In this document: positions 908 to 13,891 of the stretch, one piece after another
Layout of the letters: every line of letters begins with the position of its first letter
Numbering within the stretch: position 1 is the first letter of the stretch
Program-made: the position numbers and the translations under genes
The notes under the pieces: model-generated
Told to the model about the DNA's origin: nothing
What the model saw: the letters and a program-made list of their open reading frames with translations, nothing else
Databases searched by the model: none
Assembly: GCA_035289485.1 (NCBI GenBank)
Contig: DATDXA010000010.1
Coordinates: 1-26,209 of the forward strand
Length of the DNA stretch: 26,209 bases
From: an archaeon
GTDB lineage: Archaea; Iainarchaeota; Iainarchaeia; Iainarchaeales; Iainarchaeaceae
Reading direction: 5' to 3'

Positions 908-1438
908 ATGCGGTTCAAATATCTCATCGGCGGAGTGCTAACAGAAATTTACAGGGCACTACGAATTTTTCCGAACTCCGACCCTATAATGGGGTTTATT
1001 CTCCCCGCTGCAAAAAACGAGCCGCTGTGGAAAGCCCCGCTGTTCGCTTTCACAACAATGTTTGCATTTGATATTTTTACAAGCGGAATCGGGACTTGGA
1101 CTTATGTAACGAGCACAATGTACGCTCTCATCGCCCTTGCGTTCACATTTTATTTCAGAAACAAAAAAGCGTCCATTGCAGGTTACATGAAAGCCGGCGC
1201 TGCGGGAGTTCTCGTGTTTGACTTCATCACAGGCCCGGTAATGAGCTCCGCACTCTTTGGGCAATCATTTGCACTTACGCTGCTTATGCAGATTCCCTTC
1301 ACCATAATGCACTTTGTTTCTGCTGCATTTGCAATTGTTCTCATAACTCCATTCCTTGATGTGCAAATCATGAAGGAAATGGCAGGATATATAAACGCGG
1401 CAAAATACGCACTGCTAAGCCGGAGGATACAAACATGA
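908..1438 (+). CDS. ECF transporter S-component-like membrane protein (DUF6580-like)
   Basis: About 5-6 hydrophobic segments, 'R..PNxxPI' N-terminal motif; start moved to ATG 908; overlaps the next gene (ATGA). Confidence 0.65.
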   Translation: MRFKYLIGGVLTEIYRALRIFPNSDPIMGFILPAAKNEPLWKAPLFAFTTMFAFDIFTSGIGTWTYVTSTMYALIALAFTFYFRNKKASIAGYMKAGAAGVLVFDFITGPVMSSALFGQSFALTLLMQIPFTIMHFVSAAFAIVLITPFLDVQIMKEMAGYINAAKYALLSRRIQT

Positions 1439-1827
1439 AAAAAATGGTGATTGCAATGGCAATGCTTGTGCTTTTGCTTGGATGCTCTTCGCAAATGCAG
1501 CAGGTGCAGCAGCCACAAATGCAGAATGTTGCTGTGGATATAAAGCTCGTCAACAGGGACTCTGAAACACTCTATGAAAAGCAGATAACAGTGCAGAAAG
1601 GCAAATCACTATTTGAAGCAATGATTGAGAATTCCGTTCCGTTCGAGTACAAGGAGTTTTCCTTTGGAGTGATGGTAACAAGCGTTGCGGGAGTATCTCC
1701 TGGCAGCGAGGAATACATCGCAATTTACAAAAATGGCAAATATGCAAGTGCGGGAGTTAAGGATTTTAAGCTTGATGAGGACATGAATGTTGAATTCAGG
1801 CTCGAGGAAATAAAGCCGCCGGCATAA
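1435..1827 (+). CDS. DUF4430 (transcobalamin C-terminal-like) lipoprotein
   Basis: Lipobox LLGC; 'FGVMVTSVAGV...YKNGKYASAGVKDFKL..D.NVEF' pattern typical of DUF4430. Confidence 0.75.
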   Translation: MKKMVIAMAMLVLLLGCSSQMQQVQQPQMQNVAVDIKLVNRDSETLYEKQITVQKGKSLFEAMIENSVPFEYKEFSFGVMVTSVAGVSPGSEEYIAIYKNGKYASAGVKDFKLDEDMNVEFRLEEIKPPA

Positions 1828-1900
1828 AGCGCAAAAGCGCCTTCTTCTAAAAGCCGGCCTTGCCAAAAACCATTAAAAATCCCGCCAGCCCCAATAAATA

Positions 1901-1965
1901 GTCCAATGATGATTCGAGATTTCTGAGCTGTGAAAAGGATGCTGAGACTGGTTCGAGCTGAGGAC
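1901..1965 (+). ncRNA. Archaeal C/D box sRNA; its 3' end is the integration site (attL)
   Basis: Stem GTCC(1901-1904)/GGAC(1962-1965); perfect C box ATGATGA 1906-1912; D' CTGA 1923-1926; degenerate C' within about 1930-1942; D CTGA 1958-1961; TTAAAAA promoter at 1873-1879. Confidence 0.8.
1950..1965 (+). repeat. attL core GGTTCGAGCTGAGGAC
   Basis: Identical to 10676-10691. Confidence 0.92.
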
Positions 1966-2022
1966 GACCTGATATACACAGTTTAGATTGTTCTTTTATA
2001 TGCCAAAAGAGGCAATCTGAAC

Positions 2023-3252
2023 ATGAAAAACGATGCACACTACACCCAAAAACTCAGGGAAAAAGTGCAACAATCCAGCTGGCCCACAGAAAAAAAGAAC
2101 GCCTTTTTGGACTACCAAAACTACTTGGAAGCCACAGGCAAAAGCGCGCGCACCAAAACCCTCTACTCCCTACACGTCCACCGTCTGGGAGAGTTCGCCC
2201 CAAAAAAACAATTCGCAAATTACACCGACAAGGACATCATGGCATACAAAACCAAGCTATCCGAGAAATACGCGCCCAAAAGCGTGCATTGCGAAATGCT
2301 CGACCTCATAACCTTCCTCAAATGGCACATGAAGCTCGAGGGAAAACCCGAATGCATGAAATGGTACGATGTCAGCGAGCAAAACAAAAAGGTTGTGAAA
2401 AAACTGAACCCCAAGGACGTTTTAACGCCCGAAGACATTCTCGCGCTCGTTTCCTCATGTGGAAGCAAACGAAACAAAGCCATTGTATTCTGTTTATGGG
2501 AATCGGGCTGCCGGATACAGGAATTCTTAGATGTCCTCGTGGATGACCTGCAAATAAGCGAAAAGGTTGTTTCCGTTTGGATTCGCAAAGGAAAAACCCG
2601 CGAAGCTGAAAGGCAGGTATTTTTGATTCAATCCGCGCCCGCATTAATGGACTGGCTCGCCGAACATGAATTTAGAAAAAACAAAAACGCAAAACTATTT
2701 TTTTCCATGGGCAACAAACAACCCGGAGGCATACTGCACCACTCAGTAGCTTCCAGTATTCTTTCAAGAGCCGCAAAAAAAGCCAAAATCCAAAAGCCCG
2801 TGAATCCGCACGCACTGAGAAAATCAAGAGCCACTTTCATGGCACAAAAAGGTTACGGTGACCAAATGATGCGGCAAATGTTCGGATGGAGCGCAAACAG
2901 CCCCATGCCAAGCTTCTACTCCTCGCTATCAGGCGATGCCGTGAAAATGGCGCTCATGCAGGATGCGGGAATAATCAAGAAAGAGGAAACGGGGCAGGAG
3001 CTTGCGCCCATACCATGCCCATACTGCAAAACAACAAACAGCGCCGATGCGGCAATATGCAAGAACCTTGTTTGCTCAAGACCCTTGACAATGGAAGGAA
3101 TCACTCAAGACCGCGAGCAAAAAGCCGAAGCAATGCGCCAAATGATGCACGGCGAAATCACCGAAGCGATAGCCGCATACTTGCGCCCATTAGGGGTTAA
3201 AGCACTCGCCGAAATGACTAAAAACCAGAAAAGACTTACTAAGGAGGGATAA
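2023..3252 (+). CDS. int: Tyrosine recombinase/integrase with C-terminal Zn ribbon
   Basis: GCRIQE (R), KGKT (K), HALR (HxxR), FGW, MPSFY (Y); CPYC...CKNLVC. Confidence 0.95.
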   Translation: MKNDAHYTQKLREKVQQSSWPTEKKNAFLDYQNYLEATGKSARTKTLYSLHVHRLGEFAPKKQFANYTDKDIMAYKTKLSEKYAPKSVHCEMLDLITFLKWHMKLEGKPECMKWYDVSEQNKKVVKKLNPKDVLTPEDILALVSSCGSKRNKAIVFCLWESGCRIQEFLDVLVDDLQISEKVVSVWIRKGKTREAERQVFLIQSAPALMDWLAEHEFRKNKNAKLFFSMGNKQPGGILHHSVASSILSRAAKKAKIQKPVNPHALRKSRATFMAQKGYGDQMMRQMFGWSANSPMPSFYSSLSGDAVKMALMQDAGIIKKEETGQELAPIPCPYCKTTNSADAAICKNLVCSRPLTMEGITQDREQKAEAMRQMMHGEITEAIAAYLRPLGVKALAEMTKNQKRLTKEG

Positions 3253-3254
3253 AT

Positions 3255-3683
3255 GTGGCTAAAGAACGATATAAAATACTCGAATCGGTAGAGTGTTTCG
3301 GAATTTACAAATTAATTCTTTATTCAAAAGGTCTTACATACGATGAAGTTTCAGTAAAAACGGGAAAATCAATTCCTGTCATAAGCCAGCAATTAACTCC
3401 ATTAAGAAATGAAGCACTTGTCAAAAATATAACGGGCACAGGAGTGCGGGGTATTCCTGCACGGGTAATCGCATCTCAAATCGGGGCGCAGACATTTTTG
3501 AAAAAGCACGGCTTTAAAGTTACCAATGTGTATAAATTCTATCAGACCAACGAAAACATATTGGAAAGGGCTAGGACGTTTGGCGAGTTTTTTTCTTTAC
3601 TTAAAACGGATAAAGATGCCATTCCAAAAATTTTAACTTTTGATGATAGACTCGGAATGCAAAAAACACAGGGAAAAAATTAA
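3255..3683 (+). CDS. Winged-helix DNA-binding protein (putative repressor)
   Basis: GGAGG before GTG; 'LTYDEVSVKTGKSIPVISQQLTPLRNEALV' HTH pattern. Confidence 0.7.
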   Translation: MAKERYKILESVECFGIYKLILYSKGLTYDEVSVKTGKSIPVISQQLTPLRNEALVKNITGTGVRGIPARVIASQIGAQTFLKKHGFKVTNVYKFYQTNENILERARTFGEFFSLLKTDKDAIPKILTFDDRLGMQKTQGKN

Positions 3684-3730
3684 CTTTGCACGATGCAAAG
3701 GTTTTTAAACTTATAACCCCTTTAATTTGC

Positions 3731-3889
3731 ATGATGCAAAAGAAACTAAAAGCAATTTTCACACGAGTATCAGAGTCGGATTACCGTCGGCTCGAAACTT
3801 TTGAAAAATCCCACGGTTTTCCATCAACCCACTCAGCCGCACGATTTTTGTTATTTCGCGGTTTGGAAGCAGAAGAGGGGAAAACGTGA
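3731..3889 (+). CDS. Ribbon-helix-helix (CopG-like) protein
   Basis: 'KAIFTRVSESDYRRLE...STHSAARFLLFRGL'; TTTTAAA/TTATAA box just upstream of ATG 3731. Confidence 0.7.
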   Translation: MMQKKLKAIFTRVSESDYRRLETFEKSHGFPSTHSAARFLLFRGLEAEEGKT

Positions 3890-3981
3890 CTTTTTCTTCT
3901 TTCCTTTCCGATTTCGCCCGCGAGCAAGGCGTGAGCGTTGAGCAGGCGCGGGATGCAATAATTGGGGGTCTTTTGAAATGA
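3886..3981 (+). CDS. 31-aa micro-protein (MTFSSFLSDFAREQGVSVEQARDAIIGGLLK), absent from the ORF track
   Basis: GTGA overlap with the upstream stop and ATGA overlap with the downstream start; fills the gap exactly. Confidence 0.6.
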   Translation: MTFSSFLSDFAREQGVSVEQARDAIIGGLLK

Positions 3982-4277
3982 AAAATAGCTCCCCCACAAC
4001 CTTGCGAGAAGCAGGGGCACTAACTGATTCTTCTCACCCAGAATATAAGAAATCAGCCGTGCGGCACACTTGCCCCGTTTGTAACACCCCCAACGGCGCG
4101 AAAATGTATAAACTCCGAGCCTCCGGCAACCGCGTAACATGGCTTCACGCCTATTGTATCACCAAGCTTTCAGGGATGCCATCAGCTCTCCAATGGTGCG
4201 AAAAAAATCTTCCATTTAATCTTTCGGCGGTTTCACCCCATCAAGCCGCCGCCCCAAACAAGGAGGCGCGACCATGA
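3978..4277 (+). CDS. Small putative Zn-finger protein
   Basis: CPVC...HAYC; coupled to the rep gene (ATGA). Confidence 0.6.
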   Translation: MKNSSPTTLREAGALTDSSHPEYKKSAVRHTCPVCNTPNGAKMYKLRASGNRVTWLHAYCITKLSGMPSALQWCEKNLPFNLSAVSPHQAAAPNKEARP

Positions 4278-5782
4278 AGCGAGAAAAGCGCGAATCAGGG
4301 CCGCCAACCGAGCAGGTCGCGGCGCTCTACAATTCCGAGGGTCAGCTCCTCTACGAAACCGTGTATGACGGGGAGAAAAGTTTTTTCGTTACGCTCGTGC
4401 AGGGAAAGCCCCGGTATTTGGCTGATGTGTCAATCGGTGATGTGATTTATCAGCCCGCGCTTCAAGAGGCGTTAAAAAAAGGCGCGATTATTCTCCCAAA
4501 AGCGGCGAAGCCATACGAATCCGTGAACATTCTGCTCGATAAGGTGCAAGCCTTTATTCAGAAATACCTTGACGTTTCCCCGGACTATGAAGTGTTTGCC
4601 GCGCACTACATACTTCTATCATGGGTTTATGACCGCCTTAACACAATTCCATATCTGCGCTTCCTCGGCGACTTCTCAACAGGAAAGAGCCGCGCCCTAA
4701 ACGTGGTCGGAGGCCTATGCTACAAACCTATTCGCATGGCCGGAACAGTAACCGCCGCACCAATCTACCGCCTGCAAGGATTCTGGAAAGGAACCCTCGT
4801 AATTGACGAAGGCGACAGAAAAAAAAGCGATGAAGCTGACGAAATAACAAAAATCCTTAACTGTGGTTTTGAGATAAACAACCCCGTCCTTCGCTGTGAT
4901 GTCAATAACCCAAACGATGTCGAAGCGCATGATGTGTTCGGCCCGAAGGTGTTGGGTTCACGCCAGCCATTCTACGACCAAGCTCTTGAATCGCGGTGCT
5001 TAACCGAAGTGATGCGCGAAACTTCCCGCGATGACATTCCGACAATACTTCCACCCGCATTTTACGAGGAGCAAGAAGATTTACGCGAGCAATTGCTTTA
5101 TTTCCGCCTTACTGAGCGCGACCAAATAGACCTCGACCTTGTTTCCAGTGTGGACTTCGGCCAGCTCATTGAACGGAGATTAAGGCAGGCTTTCTCCGGG
5201 TTCTCAATCTTGTTGGCAAATAAGCCCGAACTCCTTCAAAAATTCAAAATTTTTGTTTATGAATATCAGCGCGGTTTAATCGAACAGAGAGAAGCCAGCG
5301 TTGATGGGGCAATTATAGCATATCTTTTCGAGCGCCGCGATGAAATAGATAAGGAAGTTCAATCTACAATTTCCAGCGCGGATATTTTGGAATCTCTTAA
5401 AGGCAGAGCCGGGTTTTCTGAATTAACCCCAGCGGGGGTGGGAAGGAAGTTGAGGGCGCTTGGAATTGCCACGAAAAACGTAAAAGTTGACGGGAAGGTT
5501 CGCCGGGGGATTATTTGGAAGCGCTCGGATATGGAGCAATTGTTTCGTAAATATATTTCGGAATCATGGATGCCCTCCGCTACTACTGCTACAACCGCTA
5601 CTACTGCTACTGAAAATCGCCAAAAAGTAGCGGAGGTAGCGAAGGTAGCGGTAGTAGCGGGGAGTGCGCCTATCCTCAATTGCGTTAAATGTGGCGCTGA
5701 ATTGCAGAACGGCGAGTTCCTTGTTCGGGATGAAAGGCCTTATTGTCCGGGGTGCGCTCCGCAGGTCGGTGGTTCTCCATGA
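4274..5782 (+). CDS. Putative replication protein: P-loop ATPase/helicase (DUF3631-like) with wHTH and C-terminal Zn finger
   Basis: Walker A GDFSTGKS, Walker B LVIDEGD, 'ILNCG', 'ALESRC' Arg finger, 'VGRKLRALGI' wHTH, CVKC...CPGC; GGAGG RBS. Confidence 0.8.
   Translation: MKREKRESGPPTEQVAALYNSEGQLLYETVYDGEKSFFVTLVQGKPRYLADVSIGDVIYQPALQEALKKGAIILPKAAKPYESVNILLDKVQAFIQKYLDVSPDYEVFAAHYILLSWVYDRLNTIPYLRFLGDFSTGKSRALNVVGGLCYKPIRMAGTVTAAPIYRLQGFWKGTLVIDEGDRKKSDEADEITKILNCGFEINNPVLRCDVNNPNDVEAHDVFGPKVLGSRQPFYDQALESRCLTEVMRETSRDDIPTILPPAFYEEQEDLREQLLYFRLTERDQIDLDLVSSVDFGQLIERRLRQAFSGFSILLANKPELLQKFKIFVYEYQRGLIEQREASVDGAIIAYLFERRDEIDKEVQSTISSADILESLKGRAGFSELTPAGVGRKLRALGIATKNVKVDGKVRRGIIWKRSDMEQLFRKYISESWMPSATTATTATTATENRQKVAEVAKVAVVAGSAPILNCVKCGAELQNGEFLVRDERPYCPGCAPQVGGSP
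5579..5658. repeat. Inverted pentamer array (candidate origin of replication)
   Basis: GCTAC at 5579, 5588, 5597, 5606 and GTAGC at 5627, 5636, 5645, 5654 (9-bp period) around a 16-bp A-rich spacer. Confidence 0.85.
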
Positions 5783-5952
5783 CCTCCGAGGTTACCGTTT
5801 CGGTTCGGCTTGGGCCTGTGGCTTTTGAAAATTTAGCCGCGCTTTGCTATCTTTTGGATTTGTCGCCCGAAGACGCTTTGGAACAGGCGTTAAGCAGAGC
5901 CACCGCAGATTTAGGAGAACCTTTATCTAAAAAGGAAAGGGGGCGGTTGTGA
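5779..5952 (+). CDS. Small RHH-like protein
   Basis: ATG overlaps the rep stop; 'VTVSVRL...FENLAALC......SPEDALEQAL'. Confidence 0.6.
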   Translation: MTSEVTVSVRLGPVAFENLAALCYLLDLSPEDALEQALSRATADLGEPLSKKERGRL

Positions 5953-6093
5953 ATGCCTGAAGTGTCCGAGATTGTGATTAATGCGGTGTTTACAGGCGCG
6001 GGAACTGCGGTGGGCGCTTTTCTTGGAACGCGGCTTGTGGTTCACAAGCTGGAGGGTTTGCTTGAGCGGCTCAAAAACGGGGTGAAACCTTGA
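5953..6093 (+). CDS. 46-aa single-pass membrane peptide, absent from the ORF track
   Basis: MPEVSEIVINAVFTGAGTAVGAFLGTRLVVHKLEGLLERLKNGVKP; abuts the upstream stop and overlaps the downstream TTG. Confidence 0.7.
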   Translation: MPEVSEIVINAVFTGAGTAVGAFLGTRLVVHKLEGLLERLKNGVKP

Positions 6094-6398
6094 AACGGCT
6101 TAAAAATTTTAGATTGCCTGATGATATTTGCAGTATTGTTGAGGCGCAGCCGAATCAGGCGGAATTCGTGGAAAAGGCGATTCGACTATATCACAGCACC
6201 GATGCTTTACATTCTGCACCAGCTTTACACGAAAAAAGCGAGGCAGGGGTGCAAAAAACGCATAGCTTTACACAAGTGGGCGAGCGTTTAAGCTCTGTCA
6301 GCGAGGCAATTCCGCAACCTGCACGCCCTTCCGCGTGGTGGACGGTAGAGCTGCGCCCCGGTCTTGTTAAACTATATTTCAGCGAGGTGAACCGATGA
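6090..6398 (+). CDS. RHH-like DNA-binding protein
   Basis: GGTGA RBS; 'KNFRLPDDICSIVEAQPNQAEFVEKAIR'. Confidence 0.65.
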   Translation: MKRLKNFRLPDDICSIVEAQPNQAEFVEKAIRLYHSTDALHSAPALHEKSEAGVQKTHSFTQVGERLSSVSEAIPQPARPSAWWTVELRPGLVKLYFSEVNR

Positions 6399-6658
6399 CC
6401 TCTCGGCAGGAAGCGCATGCAAAAAAGCTTGACAAGTTTTTGACAGCGGTTACTGATGCTGGTATTCGGTTAAAGCTTTCGAGGCAGAATGTTTTTTGGG
6501 CATTGTCAATTTACCTTCTTCGATTGCCTTCGGAACCGTTATTGGATGACGAACTGGGCGAAGGGGAGTATGACGATGACATTCTCGAAGGCGAGGACGA
6601 ATCGCTCGCGCCTGTCAAAGGGCCGCAAGAACCAAAACACTATCCGGGGGTGGCGTGA
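6395..6658 (+). CDS. Hypothetical protein with acidic C-terminus
   Basis: GAGGTGA RBS, ATGA coupling. Confidence 0.65.
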   Translation: MTSRQEAHAKKLDKFLTAVTDAGIRLKLSRQNVFWALSIYLLRLPSEPLLDDELGEGEYDDDILEGEDESLAPVKGPQEPKHYPGVA

Positions 6659-6737
6659 TGCTTTCCACACACAGGGGTAGGGCGCATAAAATTATGATAT
6701 ATGTATTGTTCGGAAAACTGGGCAGGAGGTGCTGGTT

Positions 6738-7169
6738 ATGAAAGGCAACGAAGAACAGTATGAGGACGAGGAGGAACCAGAGGAGGAGCCAACGTATGTG
6801 CTTTATTCGCAAAGGGTGGACATAGCGAATGATGCTCCGAGCTTCGGTTCGGAGAAGGAAGCGTTTGCGTTCAGGGAGAATGTCGAGCGTACGACAGGCA
6901 ACGAGTATGTGGTCGTTCAGCTAAACCCGAATGAGTTCCGGGTGGGTGAACTATCCTGTGGCTTAACAGGCCGTGCGCTCATACCACTAGCACTTGGGGA
7001 CAATCCAAAGTATTATGCCTTCCATGATGAGGAGCTGGCAGAGCAGGCGGCAAGGATGCTTAAAGCATGGTCGCCTTACGCGCAGGTCTTTGTAAAGAGC
7101 GCGCGACCTGAAGAGTTTGGTGTTAGGTCGGAGGATTGCCTGTGGGATGTTTTGCCGGGAAAAGGATAA
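6738..7169 (+). CDS. Acidic hypothetical protein
   Basis: GGAGGTG RBS before ATG 6738; Glu-rich. Confidence 0.7.
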   Translation: MKGNEEQYEDEEEPEEEPTYVLYSQRVDIANDAPSFGSEKEAFAFRENVERTTGNEYVVVQLNPNEFRVGELSCGLTGRALIPLALGDNPKYYAFHDEELAEQAARMLKAWSPYAQVFVKSARPEEFGVRSEDCLWDVLPGKG

Positions 7170-7251
7170 GATGCCCCCACTCTATCATGGAGGGGGATGG
7201 GATTTCGGGCTTTTTCTTTCCAAATCTGGAAACCGTTCAAGGTGATATACA

Positions 7252-7467
7252 ATGGCAGTAAGGAAAAAGAGGTTTGGCAGGGCGCTTATGATTCGCATGA
7301 ATGAGAATCTTTGGCGGCAGCTGGATACTGAATGTGGCTCTGGTTCTTTGACTAAAGCTAGGTGGGTTCGCACAGCCATACGCCATTGCCTGCATTGTGA
7401 ACAGGCAAAGCTCGAGCTGAGTCAGCAGGTTTATTCGAGGGTTATGAAATGGTCTGAACCACGCTAA
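7252..7467 (+). CDS. RHH-like protein
   Basis: AGGTGA RBS; 'LMIRMNENLWRQLD......TKARWVRTAI'. Confidence 0.7.
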   Translation: MAVRKKRFGRALMIRMNENLWRQLDTECGSGSLTKARWVRTAIRHCLHCEQAKLELSQQVYSRVMKWSEPR

Positions 7468-7603
7468 TGATTAAATAATTAGTATGAGGTTTTTGTTCGT
7501 TTGCCCCTGTCGTTGGCAAAAGACTTTTTCCGATATACCGCTTAAAATTCTCTGCGAGCTATGCTGAAAACAATTGGATTGTTGTTATTAATAGAATTAG
7601 GAT

Positions 7604-7966
7604 TTACATTCCGCCGTATGCGCCGCCGGAGTATTCGACATTGCGTCGGGCAATCAAAAGATACGCGAATGAGAAAACTACAAGGATGTAGAACCAGCCA
7701 TATTTTCCAACACTCTCGACAATCGATTGGCTTCCAGCTGAGGCGTTTTGTTGGTCGGCAATTACCCTGCCTGTTTCGTTTTTGATTGTTCCGGGTGCGA
7801 GGTTGCCGATGTTTGCGTTTGTGTCGGATAGGATTGCGTTGGATTCGTCAAACATTCCTGTAATGAAACTGTTTAAAATCGGGTTTTGCACGGAGAACAT
7901 GAACGCCATCAAGCCCACGACTATTGCGAAAACAAAAACGTATGAGAAAACTCCGCGCTCATTCAT
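7604..7966 (-). CDS. Two-TM small membrane protein with class III-like signal peptide; candidate major virion protein
   Basis: MNERG|VF followed by a hydrophobic helix, Asn-rich linker with NET/NAS sequons, second hydrophobic helix; GAGGTG RBS. Confidence 0.7.
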   Translation of the reverse strand: MNERGVFSYVFVFAIVVGLMAFMFSVQNPILNSFITGMFDESNAILSDTNANIGNLAPGTIKNETGRVIADQQNASAGSQSIVESVGKYGWFYILVVFSFAYLLIARRNVEYSGGAYGGM

Positions 7967-7975
7967 GTGCGCACC

Positions 7976-10198
7976 TCAAAGCCTGATGGCGAAGCGTGGG
8001 AATATTTGCGAGCGCGAGCTGCTCTTTTGTTTTTTTGCTCGCGGAGCTGGGCGGCTTCCAAAGAATTCGTTGAATCCTGCGAACTCGGAGGTTTTGCCGA
8101 AGATTGGCATGGCTCTGCGTGGTGCTGTCCTGCTCCTGCCCGTTTGCCCCCGACTTACAGCTCTGCCTTCGCCAAATGCGTTCCCGAAAGCAGCTGCCCA
8201 TTCATCAAAATACCCTAGTCGTGTCCGTCTGGTTCCTACTCCGCCTTCTGCGCCTAGTCTTCCGGGTGGGAAGAATGGCAAGCCCGTGGGTACTAGGGTG
8301 GGGACGTTTACCATGCTTGGAACGTTAATGTTTGTTGCGGTTGGCACGGTTGTTTCTGTCGTAGTTTCAGCCGGCCCTAAGATGTCTGTTATTTCTGGGA
8401 TATTTGTTTTTGTCGGGATTTGGGTTATGCTTGGTGTTTCTGTTCTGCTCGGCGTTTGCGTTGTGGTGAACGTGGGCAGTCCGAATTCGTCCACCAGCAC
8501 GCTGCGCCCGCCAATGTTTACCGTGCGCGAAGGCGTGAACACATCCGAAAAAAACGTAGTACCCGTTTTTGCTTTCCCTTTTGGCGCGGCTTTCTGTGTA
8601 ACCACAGGAGTTCCAGAACCCGATACGCCCATCGTGAGAACAGGTATACGCAATCCGGCTTCACGCCCAACCGCACGACTTATAAGCTTTTCAGCAACAT
8701 CACCTCCCGGTTCACCCGGAAAATCAACACCATAACCCACTCCTTGGATCACCCTTCCAAAACCATAAGGAACAGCCACCGCTTGAAGACCGGAGAATGT
8801 TGCACCACTCACACCGCCAATCGCCGCGCCAAAAAACACTCGCGACCAATCGGCTTCTCTTTTGGTAAGAGTTTCTATGTTATACGTTTGCCCCCCGCCT
8901 TCAACAACAGCAACGGCACCGATACGAGGAACGGTTAATGCTCCAAGTGCAAGAGCCTGTTTGGCAGGAGTTTTTGCGGCTCGAAGTGCCGCAGAACTTC
9001 CGCGTGTCCATTGGCTGCCGATAAATTCGCTTCCCGTTTCACTTGCGATTATACCAAGCGATGACCAAAAGCCTACAGATTCACCGCTCTTGATTACCGC
9101 GCTTATGTTCTGCGAGGTTATAGGATAGCCTTGTGATTGCAGGGCTTTTGTCGCGGCTGTTTTTTTTGATTCTTCGGATATAAAAAAACTTGTCAAACCC
9201 TGTATTCCTGATAAACCAAAACGTTGTCCCATTCCAAGCAAATCGTCTCCTCCGACTTCAGGGCGTATGATTTCGCTCGAAATCACTTTCCCTGTTTCAT
9301 CCACCGATTGATTAATGCGACCTGAAAGACCGGTGCTTATGGATTCGGAATGGTATGTTTCCAGCACTCCGAGCCTTTGTTCTCTTTGCCCGCCAAGTAT
9401 TTTTTGCAAAGTTGTTGCTTCGCTTTCTTTTGCCCCCTGCGTTGCTGTTGCACCCCACAAATGCAAACCAATCCCAGTGCCATAAACAGCCCCACTTTTA
9501 ACAGAACCGGGCACACGAGAAACAACCCCGCCACCTTTTTGAATTGCCCGTTCTGTCGTTTGAACTGCAGCAGTTCCACCCGGAACGCGAGAAGCAACAC
9601 GCGAAACCACAGGAGCCGCGCGTTCCAACAACCCGGCTAAACCGCCAACTAAAAATCTTACACCTCTGGCGATAGGATAAACAGAACCGGCTTCCGCGGC
9701 CATGGCAGACACCGGTCGACCTATGACAGCATCATATTGCGCCCGTTGTTCTTTAGGAATCAAACGTCTGGCTTCCAGTATCGGCCCGATAATAGGAACG
9801 TTTCCACTTGTCCCGATTTTATCTTGCGTGTTCGCAAACTGTTGATAAGCTGTAGCTCCAAGACCTCCGAAAATGCCATAATCCTGTTGCGGTTTTTGAA
9901 TTTCTACCTTGCGAACAGGAGCCGGAGTTATTGGCGCTCTTGAAACCGGTTCTGTGGGAATATTTCTATTAACCAAGCTAGCCTGAGCCTGAACCTCCGC
10001 AGGAGTAGGCGCAACCGCACCCCCACCCGAAGAACCGCCACCGCCGCCGTATCCGGCAAAATGTTTTTTTGCGGCTTCAGGGCCTTGTTGCCAAAAAACC
10101 TTTTTAGTTTCATCAAATTGCTTTTGAGCTTCTTGCCTCGCTGCTGATTGCCGAGCGAGAGCAGAAGCCGCCGAGTTAAGCTGGGCTTGCGTTGCCAT
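7976..10198 (-). CDS. 740-aa Gly/Ala-rich membrane-associated protein with Thr/Pro-rich and basic C-terminus; candidate virion/DNA-entry protein
   Basis: Long ORF, GAGGTG RBS, TAATG coupling; several GxxxG hydrophobic segments. Confidence 0.75.
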   Translation of the reverse strand: MATQAQLNSAASALARQSAARQEAQKQFDETKKVFWQQGPEAAKKHFAGYGGGGGSSGGGAVAPTPAEVQAQASLVNRNIPTEPVSRAPITPAPVRKVEIQKPQQDYGIFGGLGATAYQQFANTQDKIGTSGNVPIIGPILEARRLIPKEQRAQYDAVIGRPVSAMAAEAGSVYPIARGVRFLVGGLAGLLERAAPVVSRVASRVPGGTAAVQTTERAIQKGGGVVSRVPGSVKSGAVYGTGIGLHLWGATATQGAKESEATTLQKILGGQREQRLGVLETYHSESISTGLSGRINQSVDETGKVISSEIIRPEVGGDDLLGMGQRFGLSGIQGLTSFFISEESKKTAATKALQSQGYPITSQNISAVIKSGESVGFWSSLGIIASETGSEFIGSQWTRGSSAALRAAKTPAKQALALGALTVPRIGAVAVVEGGGQTYNIETLTKREADWSRVFFGAAIGGVSGATFSGLQAVAVPYGFGRVIQGVGYGVDFPGEPGGDVAEKLISRAVGREAGLRIPVLTMGVSGSGTPVVTQKAAPKGKAKTGTTFFSDVFTPSRTVNIGGRSVLVDEFGLPTFTTTQTPSRTETPSITQIPTKTNIPEITDILGPAETTTETTVPTATNINVPSMVNVPTLVPTGLPFFPPGRLGAEGGVGTRRTRLGYFDEWAAAFGNAFGEGRAVSRGQTGRSRTAPRRAMPIFGKTSEFAGFNEFFGSRPAPRAKKQKSSSRSQIFPRFAIRL

Positions 10199-10407
10199 TA
10201 ATCGCACCTCGTTTTATTTGCTTCAAAGTATAATTTTGCTTCCTGCGTGCCAATACTCCAAAAGATATTCCGAGTATCCTCGTATAATGTTTTTTGGCAC
10301 GTTTGGGGAAGATTTTGGTATGCCACAGAATCAGGGATAGGAATTACTACGGCTCCAGCTGCGCTTACAAGCATGAGAACCCCGGCGAGAATTAGCGCCG
10401 GGTTCAT
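10198..10407 (-). CDS. Small secreted or membrane-anchored protein
   Basis: N-terminal hydrophobic signal, two Cys, coupled at both ends. Confidence 0.7.
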   Translation of the reverse strand: MNPALILAGVLMLVSAAGAVVIPIPDSVAYQNLPQTCQKTLYEDTRNIFWSIGTQEAKLYFEANKTRCD

Positions 10408-10580
10408 GTTCCCGCCCCGCTAACGATTATTTGTTTATCCTGCACGCGCCATGTGAGCTTTTGCCCGTTTATGTCCGTGCGAAGCCCCAAGAGGTTCACG
10501 GCGAAGTCATAGGGCACGCTGACTTTGAAATACTTGCGACCCTTCGCCTTTGAGAAAAAAACGCTGGTTTGCTTTTCCAT
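10404..10580 (-). CDS. AbrB/SpoVT-like DNA-binding protein
   Basis: 'YFKVSVPYDFAVNLLGL......LTWRVQDKQIIVS' swapped-hairpin pattern; probably leaderless from ATG 10580. Confidence 0.65.
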   Translation of the reverse strand: MEKQTSVFFSKAKGRKYFKVSVPYDFAVNLLGLRTDINGQKLTWRVQDKQIIVSGAGT

Positions 10581-10675
10581 AAAGAAGGTTGCTAACAGCC
10601 GAGAATAAAAAAACAATGGGCTATAAGGTTAATGAAAGAACAAAAAACTAAACTGTTGGAATCTGGCGCGTTTTA

Positions 10676-10691
10676 GGTTCGAGCTGAGGAC
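10676..10691 (+). repeat. attR core GGTTCGAGCTGAGGAC
   Basis: Identical to 1950-1965. Confidence 0.92.
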
Positions 10692-10783: not shown

Positions 10784-12823
10784 TCATTTTCCGCCAAAGA
10801 GTCCGCCAAGCCGCCCCATGTTGAAAAGGTCCGAGAACTTGCTTGATTCTTCCTCAAGCTGCCTTGACTGCTCATCAAGCGCCGCAAGTGTCTCTTTGTC
10901 ATCAACACCGCTCGCCTCAAGCTTTGTCCTTATTTCCTTAAGCTTGTCAGCCCGCACACGCACCTTTGCCCCATAGTCGCCATCGCCGAATAAATAGCTC
11001 ATGAAACCGAGTTTTTCCTGGTCCTCTGCGGTTTTTTCGACCGTGTCCCCGAGCTGGTTTGCAAGGGCGGGGTCGTCATCAAAAAGTCTTGCAAGGGCGC
11101 CCTGGAAGTTGTCTGTGGCTATCTTGTCGGCTTTTATAACGCCAAAGCGCCTGCACATCTGCGAAACTACCTGTGAAGCCAGCTCTTCCGGATTTTCAAT
11201 CGATGACTGGCAGCTGCTTGCCGCGTCCTGCTTGGCTGAGCAGTTCACTGCTGCCTCTGCCCTGCACATTGCCATGCGCAGCTTCACAGAGCCCAAATCC
11301 CCAATTGCCCTTGAAGCCTCCTGCTTGCACCTCACTTTCATCCTCTCAAACTCGCCTGCCGGGGGACCGCCCTGCTGCGGGGCAAACTGGTCAAGGAGCT
11401 CATCATCGCTCATTTCGCACATCTCTTCCGGACTTGGCCCCGGAGGCCCGTATCCGCCCTGCTGCGGGGGCTGCCCATAATTTTGTTGGTCCGGGCGTTG
11501 GTAACCCTGCTGCTGGCCGTAATTGGGCTGGCCCTGGTTTGGCCCATACTGCTGCCCGGGATAAGGCTGATAGCCTTGGCCCTCAAAGCCCCTTGGCTGC
11601 TGGCCCGAACCATAAGGCTGCTGGCCAAAATCAGGGCCTTCAGTTCCACTGCCAGGCACATAGCTAGACCCTGCACTTGGGAGAACATCTGTGGAGGATT
11701 GCTCTGAACGCTGCACCTCTGTGGAGCTGCCAGGAGAAGATTGCGTTGAATCGGCCTCTTCCAAATTGCCTACTGTAAAAAACCCTGTTGCCGGAAATAT
11801 CCTCTCCATTATCCTTTTTGCGGCGGTTTCAGCGGGGGAATCCTGAGCCGGAGCCTGTTCAGGCTCTGGTGCAGGCGCTGGCTCTTGAGGCGGTGCCACA
11901 GTTTCCTGCGGCTGCGGATTTTCTGAGGGTGTCTCCTCCTGCTGTGGCGCCGAATCTTCATATGGCGCATCCTGCACCGGCATTGGATAATTTTCTTGTG
12001 GCTGGGGTGCCGGCTCGCTGCCCTGCTGATATGGCGGCTGCTCGCAGACCCATCTTCCGGTTGTGCACGAGGACCTTGCACCGCCAGGGCATTGTGGGGG
12101 CTGTGATGAGCACTCGTCCCTATAACCGGGCTGCTGGCCGCCATAGCCCTGTTGCGGCTCCCTGTTTCCCTGGCCTTGCTGCTGCACATTAAATTCCGGG
12201 AAATGGAAGTCGAATGAGCGCTCCTGCATCTGCTTTAAATTCTGCTTGAACTCGGTGCACTTCTGCCTGAACTCAGGAATTTTTGCCTTGATGCTTTCTA
12301 AGAACTCCTCCTCCCTTGCCGCCTGCCTCTCTTTCTGCTCATCTATTTGTGCGATGCAAACTTTTTCTATAACAGTCTCGTTCATTGTCTCAAAAGTGAG
12401 GCTTTCGGCAGTGTACCCTGCCTTTTCGAGGTATCGCTTCATCCCCGGAGGAAATGGGAGGCCGCCCTCGCTAAACGAAGGGCAATATAGGTCCGGAGTG
12501 CATGAATCGGCTTCTGACTTGAGCCTTGCGCACGCGGTTGAAGTCTCCCCAGACTGCCTTATCACCGAAGCTATCTGGGATTGGATAGCGTCCCTCTCGC
12601 CCCTGCAGCCCTGCACGAATGCACCGCTATTTTCCGAAACCCAAGTATAGGCACTGGTCATCGATTCAACTAGTTGCTGGGATGCGACATATTCCTGGTC
12701 CGCATAGCTTGCCTTTTCCATGCCAAAGCCGAAGTCGTTTTCTGCAAAGCCCTGCCCGCCAAATTGGTCATTTTCTGCCGAATAGGAAAATGCTGACAAA
12801 ATTAGTACTGCAAAGCCAATCAA
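10784..12823 (-). CDS. Large secreted Cys-rich protein with Gln/Pro/Gly low-complexity linkers
   Basis: Signal-like N-terminus, many spaced Cys in helical blocks, QQxYG-type repeats; start uncertain. Confidence 0.8.
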   Translation of the reverse strand: MIGFAVLILSAFSYSAENDQFGGQGFAENDFGFGMEKASYADQEYVASQQLVESMTSAYTWVSENSGAFVQGCRGERDAIQSQIASVIRQSGETSTACARLKSEADSCTPDLYCPSFSEGGLPFPPGMKRYLEKAGYTAESLTFETMNETVIEKVCIAQIDEQKERQAAREEEFLESIKAKIPEFRQKCTEFKQNLKQMQERSFDFHFPEFNVQQQGQGNREPQQGYGGQQPGYRDECSSQPPQCPGGARSSCTTGRWVCEQPPYQQGSEPAPQPQENYPMPVQDAPYEDSAPQQEETPSENPQPQETVAPPQEPAPAPEPEQAPAQDSPAETAAKRIMERIFPATGFFTVGNLEEADSTQSSPGSSTEVQRSEQSSTDVLPSAGSSYVPGSGTEGPDFGQQPYGSGQQPRGFEGQGYQPYPGQQYGPNQGQPNYGQQQGYQRPDQQNYGQPPQQGGYGPPGPSPEEMCEMSDDELLDQFAPQQGGPPAGEFERMKVRCKQEASRAIGDLGSVKLRMAMCRAEAAVNCSAKQDAASSCQSSIENPEELASQVVSQMCRRFGVIKADKIATDNFQGALARLFDDDPALANQLGDTVEKTAEDQEKLGFMSYLFGDGDYGAKVRVRADKLKEIRTKLEASGVDDKETLAALDEQSRQLEEESSKFSDLFNMGRLGGLFGGK

Positions 12824-13748: not shown

Positions 13749-13891
13749 TGTTTCACCTCGCAAACCAAAAATAAAATTGGCAAGCACTTTCTGCACCGAG
13801 GTGAATATAAAATTGTTGATGCGGCCACTAACGGAGCATAAGAATTGAAAAATTCGAATTTTTATCAAAAAAACTTAAAAAAGGGGTGGAA

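Follow-up and report, generated by a model that had tools for sequence, protein, structure and literature searches.

Evidence for an integrative element inserted into the 3′ end of a predicted box C/D sRNA gene in an archaeon of the Iainarchaeota

The genes of tRNA and tmRNA are the classical cases of small RNA genes whose tails receive site-specific insertions, and ssrA is a known integration target. Archaeal integrative elements reportedly include the pTN3/TKV type and SNJ2, the latter being said to target a tRNA. The int gene of the SSV-type elements contains the att site and is split when the element integrates. To our knowledge, C/D sRNAs are absent from bacteria.

The tRNA genes are not the sole targets in archaea, where attB sites also include intergenic and protein-coding sequences (PMC8371274, section 19); the accessible text of this review mentions neither sRNA, snoRNA nor non-coding. 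For the thaumarchaeal iMGEs, the part of PMC6563490 that deals with att sites gives 39 in tRNA genes, 15 in intergenic sequences and 14 in protein genes. Bacterial prophages and islands integrate into the ffs 4.5S RNA gene (PMC12540744, in the accessible part), and in the ProBord survey, mostly bacterial, ncRNA and tmRNA accounted for 13.5% and 11.7% of the RNA targets, respectively (PMC13626063, in the accessible part). The sRNA genes of Pyrobaculum themselves move, since they are described as MITE-like, duplicated and transposed, and the accessible part of that catalogue never mentions an integrase or integration (PMC6009581). The preliminary description of the present locus knew of no established C/D sRNA attB, but left its novelty unverified. 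Our literature search likewise found no published case; the supplementary tables of iMGE and provirus surveys, which lay outside the search and could hold one, limit this statement.

The locus lies on a contig of 26,209 nucleotides, here called the window and taken as the whole stretch analysed (contig C10), from a genome assembly of 1.16 Mb in 64 contigs that is 90% complete. The host, a groundwater archaeon with a small genome, is a DPANN archaeon of the Candidatus Iainarchaeum/Diapherotrites lineage as judged from its fibrillarin, whose nearest named relatives are in MAGs of this lineage (63–72% identity). The best matches of the fibrillarin, also from MAGs, reach 79% identity.

As in the archaeal elements that use non-SSV tyrosine integrases to target the 3′ part of tRNA genes, an integrase of the PF00589 superfamily lies beside attL, the direct repeat equals the end of a gene for a small structured RNA, the target gene is regenerated, and the site can be hit repeatedly or in tandem. 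Unlike in these elements, the target is here a predicted box C/D guide RNA gene, the core overlaps the antisense guide including the N+5 position, and the host is a DPANN archaeon. The bacterial insertions into ncRNA genes share with our locus the use of a conserved small RNA gene as attB and an att core at the 3′ end; they differ in that the target is here an archaeal C/D sRNA, and no C/D or snoRNA-like target is named in the accessible parts of those papers. With the SSV-type integrases, the locus shares an archaeal tyrosine recombinase and site-specific integration (PMC7253208, as far as its accessible part describes them); it differs by an intact int gene and an att site 57 bp upstream of int. 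The RNA itself resembles the archaeal C/D families of Rfam (sR2, sR41, sR12) and the accessible entries of the Pyrobaculum catalogue (PMC6009581) in its C, D′, C′ and D boxes, its D guide of 12 nt, its short terminal stem and its predicted targeting of rRNA by the N+5 rule. The features of the locus are as follows, the parts of the sRNA gene being read from the sequence.

1435–1827, plus strand: left-flank host gene, 130 aa, DUF4430 (PF14478, E 1.7e-08)
1872–1879, plus strand: TATA-like box ATTAAAAA of the sRNA gene, at a position conserved in relatives
1901–1965, plus strand: predicted box C/D sRNA gene, supported by boxes, conservation, stem covariation and covariance-model matches
1901–1904, plus strand: 5′ stem of the sRNA, GTCC
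1906–1912, plus strand: C box, ATGATGA, invariant in 14/14 aligned homologues
1913–1922, plus strand: D′ guide, 10 nt, varying between genera
1923–1926, plus strand: D′ box, CTGA, invariant
1939–1945, plus strand: C′ box, ATGCTGA, with one deviation from the consensus
1946–1957, plus strand: D guide, 12 nt
1958–1961, plus strand: D box, CTGA, invariant in 14/14 aligned homologues
1962–1965, plus strand: 3′ stem of the sRNA, GGAC
1950–1965, plus strand: attL core, 16-bp direct repeat GGTTCGAGCTGAGGAC, exact
1966–10675, no strand assigned: body of the element between the cores, 8,710 bp (element of about 8.7 kb), around 13 ORFs, absent between homologous flanks in genome G017
1978–1995, plus strand: left-end inverted repeat arm holding ACAGTTTAG, inverted with respect to 10639–10656
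2023–3252, plus strand: tyrosine integrase, 409 aa, intact (PF00589, PF13495, phrog_1 integrase)
4274–5782, plus strand: conserved ORFan, 502 aa, with a Walker-A-like motif and homologues in the order
10639–10656, minus strand: right-end inverted repeat arm (CTAAACTGT on the plus strand), inverted with respect to 1978–1995
10676–10691, plus strand: attR core, exact second copy of the 16-mer
10784–12823, minus strand: right-flank host gene, 679 aa, no family, with homologues near the sRNA in relatives

The 16-mer GGTTCGAGCTGAGGAC occurs exactly twice, at 1950–1965 and 10676–10691, with no mismatch between the two copies, and allowing up to two mismatches revealed no further copy in the window nor in the 1.16-Mb assembly. 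The identity is restricted to 16 bp because the adjoining bases differ at either side, and two copies were reached in none of 100 shuffles of the window. Within the sRNA, the core covers positions 8 to 1 of the D guide (the N+5 position being 1953), the D box and the 3′ stem, and ARAGORN detected no tRNA gene in the window. All three points had been made in the preliminary description, namely that a 16-bp att core is repeated at these positions, that it coincides with the 3′ end of a C/D sRNA including base 1953, and that neither end carries a tRNA; the searches and the coordinates of the boxes and stem bear them out.

The flanks of the segment were then compared with those of relatives. By tblastn, 10 other genomes, with 13 locus rows, have a homologue of the DUF4430 gene immediately before the sRNA. 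In G017, which belongs to a different genus, the order is a DUF4430 homologue (33% identity, E 2e-27), the sRNA, 0.8 kb with one small ORF, and a homologue of the 679-aa gene; the distance from the sRNA to the right-flank gene is thus 0.8 kb there versus 8.8 kb in the window. A metagenome locus, L191, carries a homologue of the 679-aa gene beyond a 1.5-kb islet bounded by repeats. In G001, from the same genus as the host, the 36 nt that follow the sRNA align to the attR flank with a score of 16 (shuffle mean 3.5, none of 1,000 shuffles as good) and poorly to the attL side (score 5); the contig ends after these 36 nt. An empty site, proposed earlier as a check, is therefore seen as an unoccupied site at the genus level and as synteny of the flanks in G017. 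Taken from the comparison of genomes, these data support the interpretation of 1966–10675 as an insertion bounded by the 16-bp repeat.

The 3′ end of the sRNA appears to have been used repeatedly, and of the evidence added here this recurrence is the strongest. Besides the window, four loci carry exact repeats of the sRNA tail, which bound short islets.

G003: 20-bp repeat, islet of 1.17 kb with a DUF1801 gene
G009: 18-bp repeat, islet of 2.5 kb with a Fic/DOC gene
L191 (metagenome locus): 20-bp repeat, islet of 1.5 kb with the homologue of the 679-aa gene beyond it
L188: 26-bp repeat, islet of 0.72 kb

The five exact repeats, including that of the window, measure 16–26 bp, start 8–11 nt before the D box and end 3–14 nt past it, and each of them carries the stem sequence of its own host. 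Degenerate second copies of the core are present in G016 and L195. Altogether, 8 of 29 locus rows, corresponding to 7 distinct loci, have a second copy downstream with at most two mismatches; none was found in the five loci from other families. Just downstream of the sRNA, G015 and L190, its twin from a metagenome, encode a full-length integrase (60% identity over residues 10–387) and have a homologue of ORF 3978–4277, and G004 contains integrase fragments downstream of the sRNA. L188 and L190 share 127 of 127 nt as far as the final base of the core and diverge beyond it, which shows one species with two states of the site. Among the 18 family loci with at least 700 nt of downstream sequence, 9 have a second core or an integrase after the sRNA. 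The case for site-specific integration therefore goes beyond what had been described at first, since eight more related loci have either a duplicate of the 3′ end of the sRNA or an integrase after it. Several of the sRNA loci lie within 0–1 kb of contig ends; such positions would fit heterogeneity of the populations, an observation that is only suggestive.

The integrase scored 71.1 bits against PF00589 (cut-off 27.1) and 31.1 bits against PF13495, both above cut-off, and its residues R, K, HxxR, W and Y align with those of XerA of P. abyssi (4a8e). It has a C-terminal extension, and its gene begins 57 bp inside attL. Two other assignments were rejected. The protein does not qualify as an archaeal XerA, as its score against the equivalog NF040815 was 106.9 bits for a cut-off of 220, and it is a 409-aa, element-borne protein; it is not of the SSV type either, the ORF 2023–3252 being uninterrupted with both cores outside it. 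The ends of the segment carry a second motif. The 9-mer ACAGTTTAG, for which about 8.8 occurrences are expected in the whole genome, is found only in the two end arms, and ACAGTTTAGATT lies likewise downstream of the core in G003. The inverted 9-mers, 12 and 19 bp inside the cores, are probably arm or accessory sites of the integrase.

The other genes of the element are mostly without relatives. Among the 13 ORFs tested against Pfam, PHROGs and NCBIfam, 12 gave no family above cut-off, and besides the integrase we recognised no replication or virion gene and no transposase. The 502-aa ORFan has homologues with 35–49% full-length identity in four other families of the order, whose consensus holds GDFSTGKSR, and weaker matches in 12 more genomes, several of them near integrase matches; it has no relative in Pfam or the PDB, and its AF2 model is poor (pLDDT 53). 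A 743-aa ORF yielded nothing above chance in Atlas. The viral contig collection contained no relatives of the integrase or of the 502-aa ORF, a 15-mer scan of it gave chance matches only, and the sRNA or an element protein was present in none of 80 loci. The genome contig collection, searched for related loci with the integrase, gave no relatives. The GC content of the segment (0.42–0.53) is not distinct from that of the flanks. The promoter and terminator scan was of the bacterial type and is uninformative for an archaeon.

Homologues of the integrase were searched in 196 genomes of the order (E ≤ 1e-10), and matches were obtained in 182 of them, the XerA-like genes of the hosts included. Only those of G015 and G004 are close to the integrase of the window. 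The att sites of the homologues, whose classification had also been suggested, were examined at the best 28 other integrase loci (31–38% identity): ARAGORN found a tRNA in 9 of them, five of which have it immediately upstream with matching orientation (Asn, Leu, Ser, Asn and Met). Among the integrase loci examined, a C/D pattern upstream of int was restricted to the window and G015. The likeliest course is that one lineage of this integrase family adopted the sRNA as its target, perhaps after using tRNA genes as its distant homologues do. We considered whether a T-loop-like core (GGTTCGA...) had eased such a switch. At the tRNA-Met locus L213, the 12-nt repeat is the 3′ end of the acceptor rather than the T-loop, and three other tRNA-linked relatives show no clear repeat; as the tRNA cores are poorly defined, the idea is unsupported.

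Seven public sequencing runs from four studies (groundwater, soil) contain the locus; all are DNA, in the form of contigs. Contigs bridge attL in the run X2, which is a possible source, as well as in X5 from another study, and they bridge attR in X2 only, as counted with a 31-letter rule. One contig of X3 starts exactly where the attR core begins (position 10676); this fork gives a weak hint of a possible alternative left neighbour of attR. No attB or attP joint was present among the contigs of four runs, and contigs drop rare variants.

These observations bear on whether the element is still mobile. It could now be a fixed and immobile relic, the short islets of the relatives being decay products of ancient insertions. 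The missing replication and virion genes mean that the element could be decaying, the run contigs contain no excised form, the viral collection holds no relative, and the integrase pseudogene fragments of G004 as well as the integrase-less islets of 0.7–2.5 kb in relatives would fit such decay. A full-length integrase ORF with all the catalytic residues, repeats that are still identical at 16 of 16 positions, the two states of the L188/L190 locus that diverge exactly at the core end and, as a weak hint, the fork of the X3 contig graph at the first base of the attR core speak for an element that may be mobile at present. We regard the relic as possible, though somewhat unlikely.

The identity of the target gene was evaluated from its conservation. 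With positions 1700–2000 as a BLAST query against 40 relatives (22 other genomes of the family and one genome from each of 18 other families), a 56-nt segment from box to box was found with 80–89% identity in 16 of the 22 family genomes, across six genera, and in none of the 18 genomes that sample the other families; counting the host, 17 of 41 genomes have the sRNA. A covariance model built from 14 copies detected the sRNA in 22 of 151 genomes of the order, including 13 of 15 in the family, and in four other families in total, with E ≤ 1e-9 in 2 of 2 genomes of f26, 2 of 2 of f23 and 2 of 3 of f4.

The alignment of 14 sequences shows no variation in any of the four boxes or in the guide core ACTGGTTC; the spacer from C to D′ measures 10 nt versus the usual 12. 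The terminal stem is paired in 94.6% of the alignment cells versus 20–71% in slid controls, both sides change in three of the four pairs, and the covariation score was reached by none of 500 shuffles. Thus GTCC/GGAC in the window is replaced by GTTC/GAAC, GCCG/CGGC or GTTG/CAAC in relatives. A box of the TTTAAA/TTAAAA type begins 31–36 nt upstream of the C box at 16 of 16 sRNA loci, the other upstream sequence being unconserved; this box may be the archaeal promoter of an independent transcription unit, from which the sRNA would be expressed. The host also encodes the proteins of the C/D RNP, fibrillarin (266.5 bits), Nop5 (202.1 bits) and L7Ae (95.1 bits), all over the Pfam cut-offs, and the genes of Nop5 and fibrillarin are neighbours on contig C34. 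A crude scan for the C/D pattern over the whole genome gave 1901–1965 as the sole candidate, and none in the reversed control.

In the Rfam search, the kind of check proposed for this gene, no family matched the window at its gathering score. In a permissive scan of 1850–2020, 19 of 20 weak matches lay on the plus strand across 1895–1974, 18 of them to box C/D families and one to a scaRNA; the best, sR2, scored 23.4 bits for a gathering score of 42 (E 0.0015). Since no Rfam family reached the threshold, the sRNA would form a new family, and the weak profile is what an as yet uncurated family of guide RNA could give. The minimum free energy fold contains the terminal stem with an energy that is not beyond shuffles (z = -0.49); this value says little because a C/D RNA is scaffolded by proteins.

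Because the assembly contains no rRNA, the target of the guide was searched in the rRNA genes of relatives. The best candidate is the LSU rRNA site UGCGAGCCAGUUU, identical in 8 of 8 LSU genes of the family. The consensus guide forms with it 10 Watson-Crick pairs, two GU pairs and one A.G mismatch (position 2), which was equalled by 13 of 300 shuffled guides. The guide of G012 against its own LSU rRNA forms 12 Watson-Crick pairs and one GU pair with no mismatch, equalled by none of 300 shuffles; two positions are changed in this guide, both restoring Watson-Crick pairs. In the guides of f4 and f23, a C at position 6 turns a U.G wobble into a C-G pair, the LSU site of G082 being identical. The guide of the host itself is the weakest against the site (9 Watson-Crick pairs, three GU pairs and one mismatch), and some variants break a pair through an A, which stands at position 3 in two genomes (G018, G011) and at position 6 in G081, where the LSU site is unchanged.

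No convincing target was found in the SSU rRNA of four relatives; among the 29 tRNAs of the host, the best match has two mismatches plus GU pairs and is not convincing. A 12-mer search of 23 family genomes revealed no recurrent site besides the sRNA gene itself, with counts that resemble those of the reversed control. From these pairings, we lean towards the LSU site UGCGAGCCAGUUU as the target of the guide. The partner of the N+5 position we take to correspond to about A2598 of E. coli, in helix 93, beside A2602 of the peptidyl-transferase centre.

Even with site-specific integration, the conserved 65 nt might be some other non-coding element, or a DNA site, downstream of the DUF4430 gene rather than a methylation guide, in which case attB would simply be intergenic. 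Such a reading would account for the missing match at the Rfam gathering score, for the single C/D-pattern locus in the genome, for the unexceptional fold energy and for the lack of a perfect rRNA or tRNA complement in the lineage of the genome, and the runs that hold the locus are all DNA. It leaves unexplained four invariant boxes at correct spacing, compensatory changes in the terminal stem, a promoter-like box at a fixed distance in 16 of 16 loci, and 19 of 20 weak Rfam matches to C/D-box or scaRNA families on the right strand. The presence of the C/D RNP genes, and a guide that is conserved across five families with several variants that improve the pairing to an invariant LSU site, argue further for a guide RNA. 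We therefore judge the non-guide alternative very unlikely. The preliminary description had called 1901–1965 a C/D sRNA gene, and the conservation across genera, the fixed promoter box, the covarying stem, the RNP proteins and a plausible rRNA target uphold this; taken together, they support 1901–1965 as a conserved C/D sRNA gene of the host.

That the 16-bp repeat is incidental, or was left by duplication, homologous recombination or the target-site duplication of a transposon, with 1966–10675 being ordinary variable chromosome, could draw on the lack of an attP or empty-site junction for the species among the run contigs, on a GC content like that of the flanks and on the many unclassifiable ORFs, but it is hardly credible in view of a second copy reached in 0 of 100 shuffles, an intact integrase adjoining one repeat, genome-unique inverted 9-mers at both ends, five independent exact repeats in the same register of the sRNA, about 0.003 core copies expected per 12 kb (by arithmetic, for a 16-mer with up to two mismatches) versus 7 distinct loci, and the absence of a transposase.

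We thus consider it very likely that an integrative element of 8.7 kb, which may be a virus or a plasmid, was inserted by the site-specific action of a tyrosine recombinase at the 3′ end of a chromosomal gene for a box C/D sRNA. In such a mechanism, attP would carry a 16-bp copy of the sRNA tail, that is positions 8–1 of the D guide, the D box and the 3′ strand of the stem. Strand exchange within the 16 bp of identity, where the crossover would lie, would leave a complete sRNA gene at attL. The last bases of this gene would physically derive from the element, and a free-standing copy of the core would be left at attR. The sRNA would be a conserved guide of the host, most likely for 2′-O-methylation of the invariant site in helix 93 of the LSU rRNA. 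It would play for this integrase the role that tRNA genes play for its distant relatives, being a short, conserved and indispensable target that is not destroyed by integration.

The mechanism is classical; what is new is the class of the target, its overlap with the guide, its repeated use in several genera and a host from the DPANN archaea. A broader proposal, which we offer tentatively and hold to be unlikely, is that C/D guide RNA genes are a general and overlooked class of archaeal attB, that some intergenic att sites are unannotated sRNA genes, and that the crossover takes place inside the D guide. An element that recombines there would contribute the terminal guide bases together with the D box and 3′ stem to the conserved host guide for the peptidyl-transferase-centre region, so that element and guide would have to co-evolve. 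If this is true, the species-specific stem would set the host range, and incoming elements could bring other forms of the guide, for instance with the A/G difference beside the D box, and so alter the methylation of rRNA.

The finding suggests that the intergenic att sites of archaea deserve a scan for sRNA genes. Combined with the cognate integrases, the cores of 16–20 bp are candidates for orthogonal integration tools in archaea, and the locus would offer a natural system where the recognition site of an integrase and an antisense guide overlap. For the biology of the family, the data point to a new, deeply conserved family of C/D sRNA in organisms that seemingly have very few guides. A C/D guide RNA gene as a recurrent attB would represent a new class of integration target in the Iainarchaeota, a barely studied lineage of the DPANN archaea.

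The consensus att core, as read from the D guide in the sRNA homologues of relatives, contains a perfect 8-bp palindrome, GTTCGAAC, the counterpart of which in the window is GTTCGAGC. Tyrosine recombinases need dyad symmetry of this kind. In the predicted minimum free energy fold of the sRNA, the energy of which is no better than that of shuffles, the D′ guide is able to pair with the D guide through its conserved first bases (U-N-CGAG). The tail of the sRNA at locus L024, in a genome of another genus (G021), is identical to the att core of the window at 16 of 16 positions, GGAC stem included. Judged by this sequence identity, the G021 host could in principle be used by the element of the window as well.

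Three of the element's long reading frames are listed here:

4274-5782, + strand: 502-aa ORFan with homologues in the order and a Walker-A-like motif in the consensus
7782-8735, + strand: long candidate ORF, overlapping the opposite-strand ORF 7976-10207
7976-10207, − strand: long candidate ORF, overlapping the opposite-strand ORF 7782-8735

The 502-aa ORFan has full-length homologues (35-49% identity) in four further families within the order and weak homologues in 12 other genomes, and several homologues lie a few kb from integrase matches (genome:contig G184:C14, G084:C4, G149:C74, G139:C40 and G071:C5). The motif in the consensus reads GDFSTGKSR. The protein probably serves this family of elements as its core ATPase for replication or packaging. 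Close to the 3′ end of its ORF, positions 5577-5660 carry a 35-nt inverted repeat of 9-nt tandem units (CCGCTACTACTGCTAC...). No family and no Atlas relative was found for either of the two overlapping ORFs. Among relatives, genes of defence or toxin-antitoxin type occur in the cargo of islets or remnants located behind the sRNA (L020, 2404-3369; L019, 2334-3452): one with a Fic/DOC domain in G009 and a DndB-like one in G004.

In the public run X6, the 3′ end of the integrase and the ORF 3255-3683 were matched (window 2972-3648) at about 96% identity on a contig of 6,087 nt. The depth of this contig was 19-22, whereas that of the host flanks was 3-4, showing that a related element is more abundant there than this host. 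Contigs of X6 (depth 3.8) and of the possible source run X2 (10.1) also link position 13883 back to 10632 via 34 letters. The palindromic part, 20 of these 34 letters, has no match in the window at up to 3 mismatches; CACATAATT is common to the joining letters and the attR flank. This joint may reflect a different arrangement, or it may stem from a related element carried by a sibling strain.

A search of the whole host genome revealed no rRNA gene in the assembly, and a crude pattern scan of the same scope fitted a C/D sRNA at one locus only. Nop5 and fibrillarin are nevertheless encoded, and this lineage may get by with a very small set of guides.
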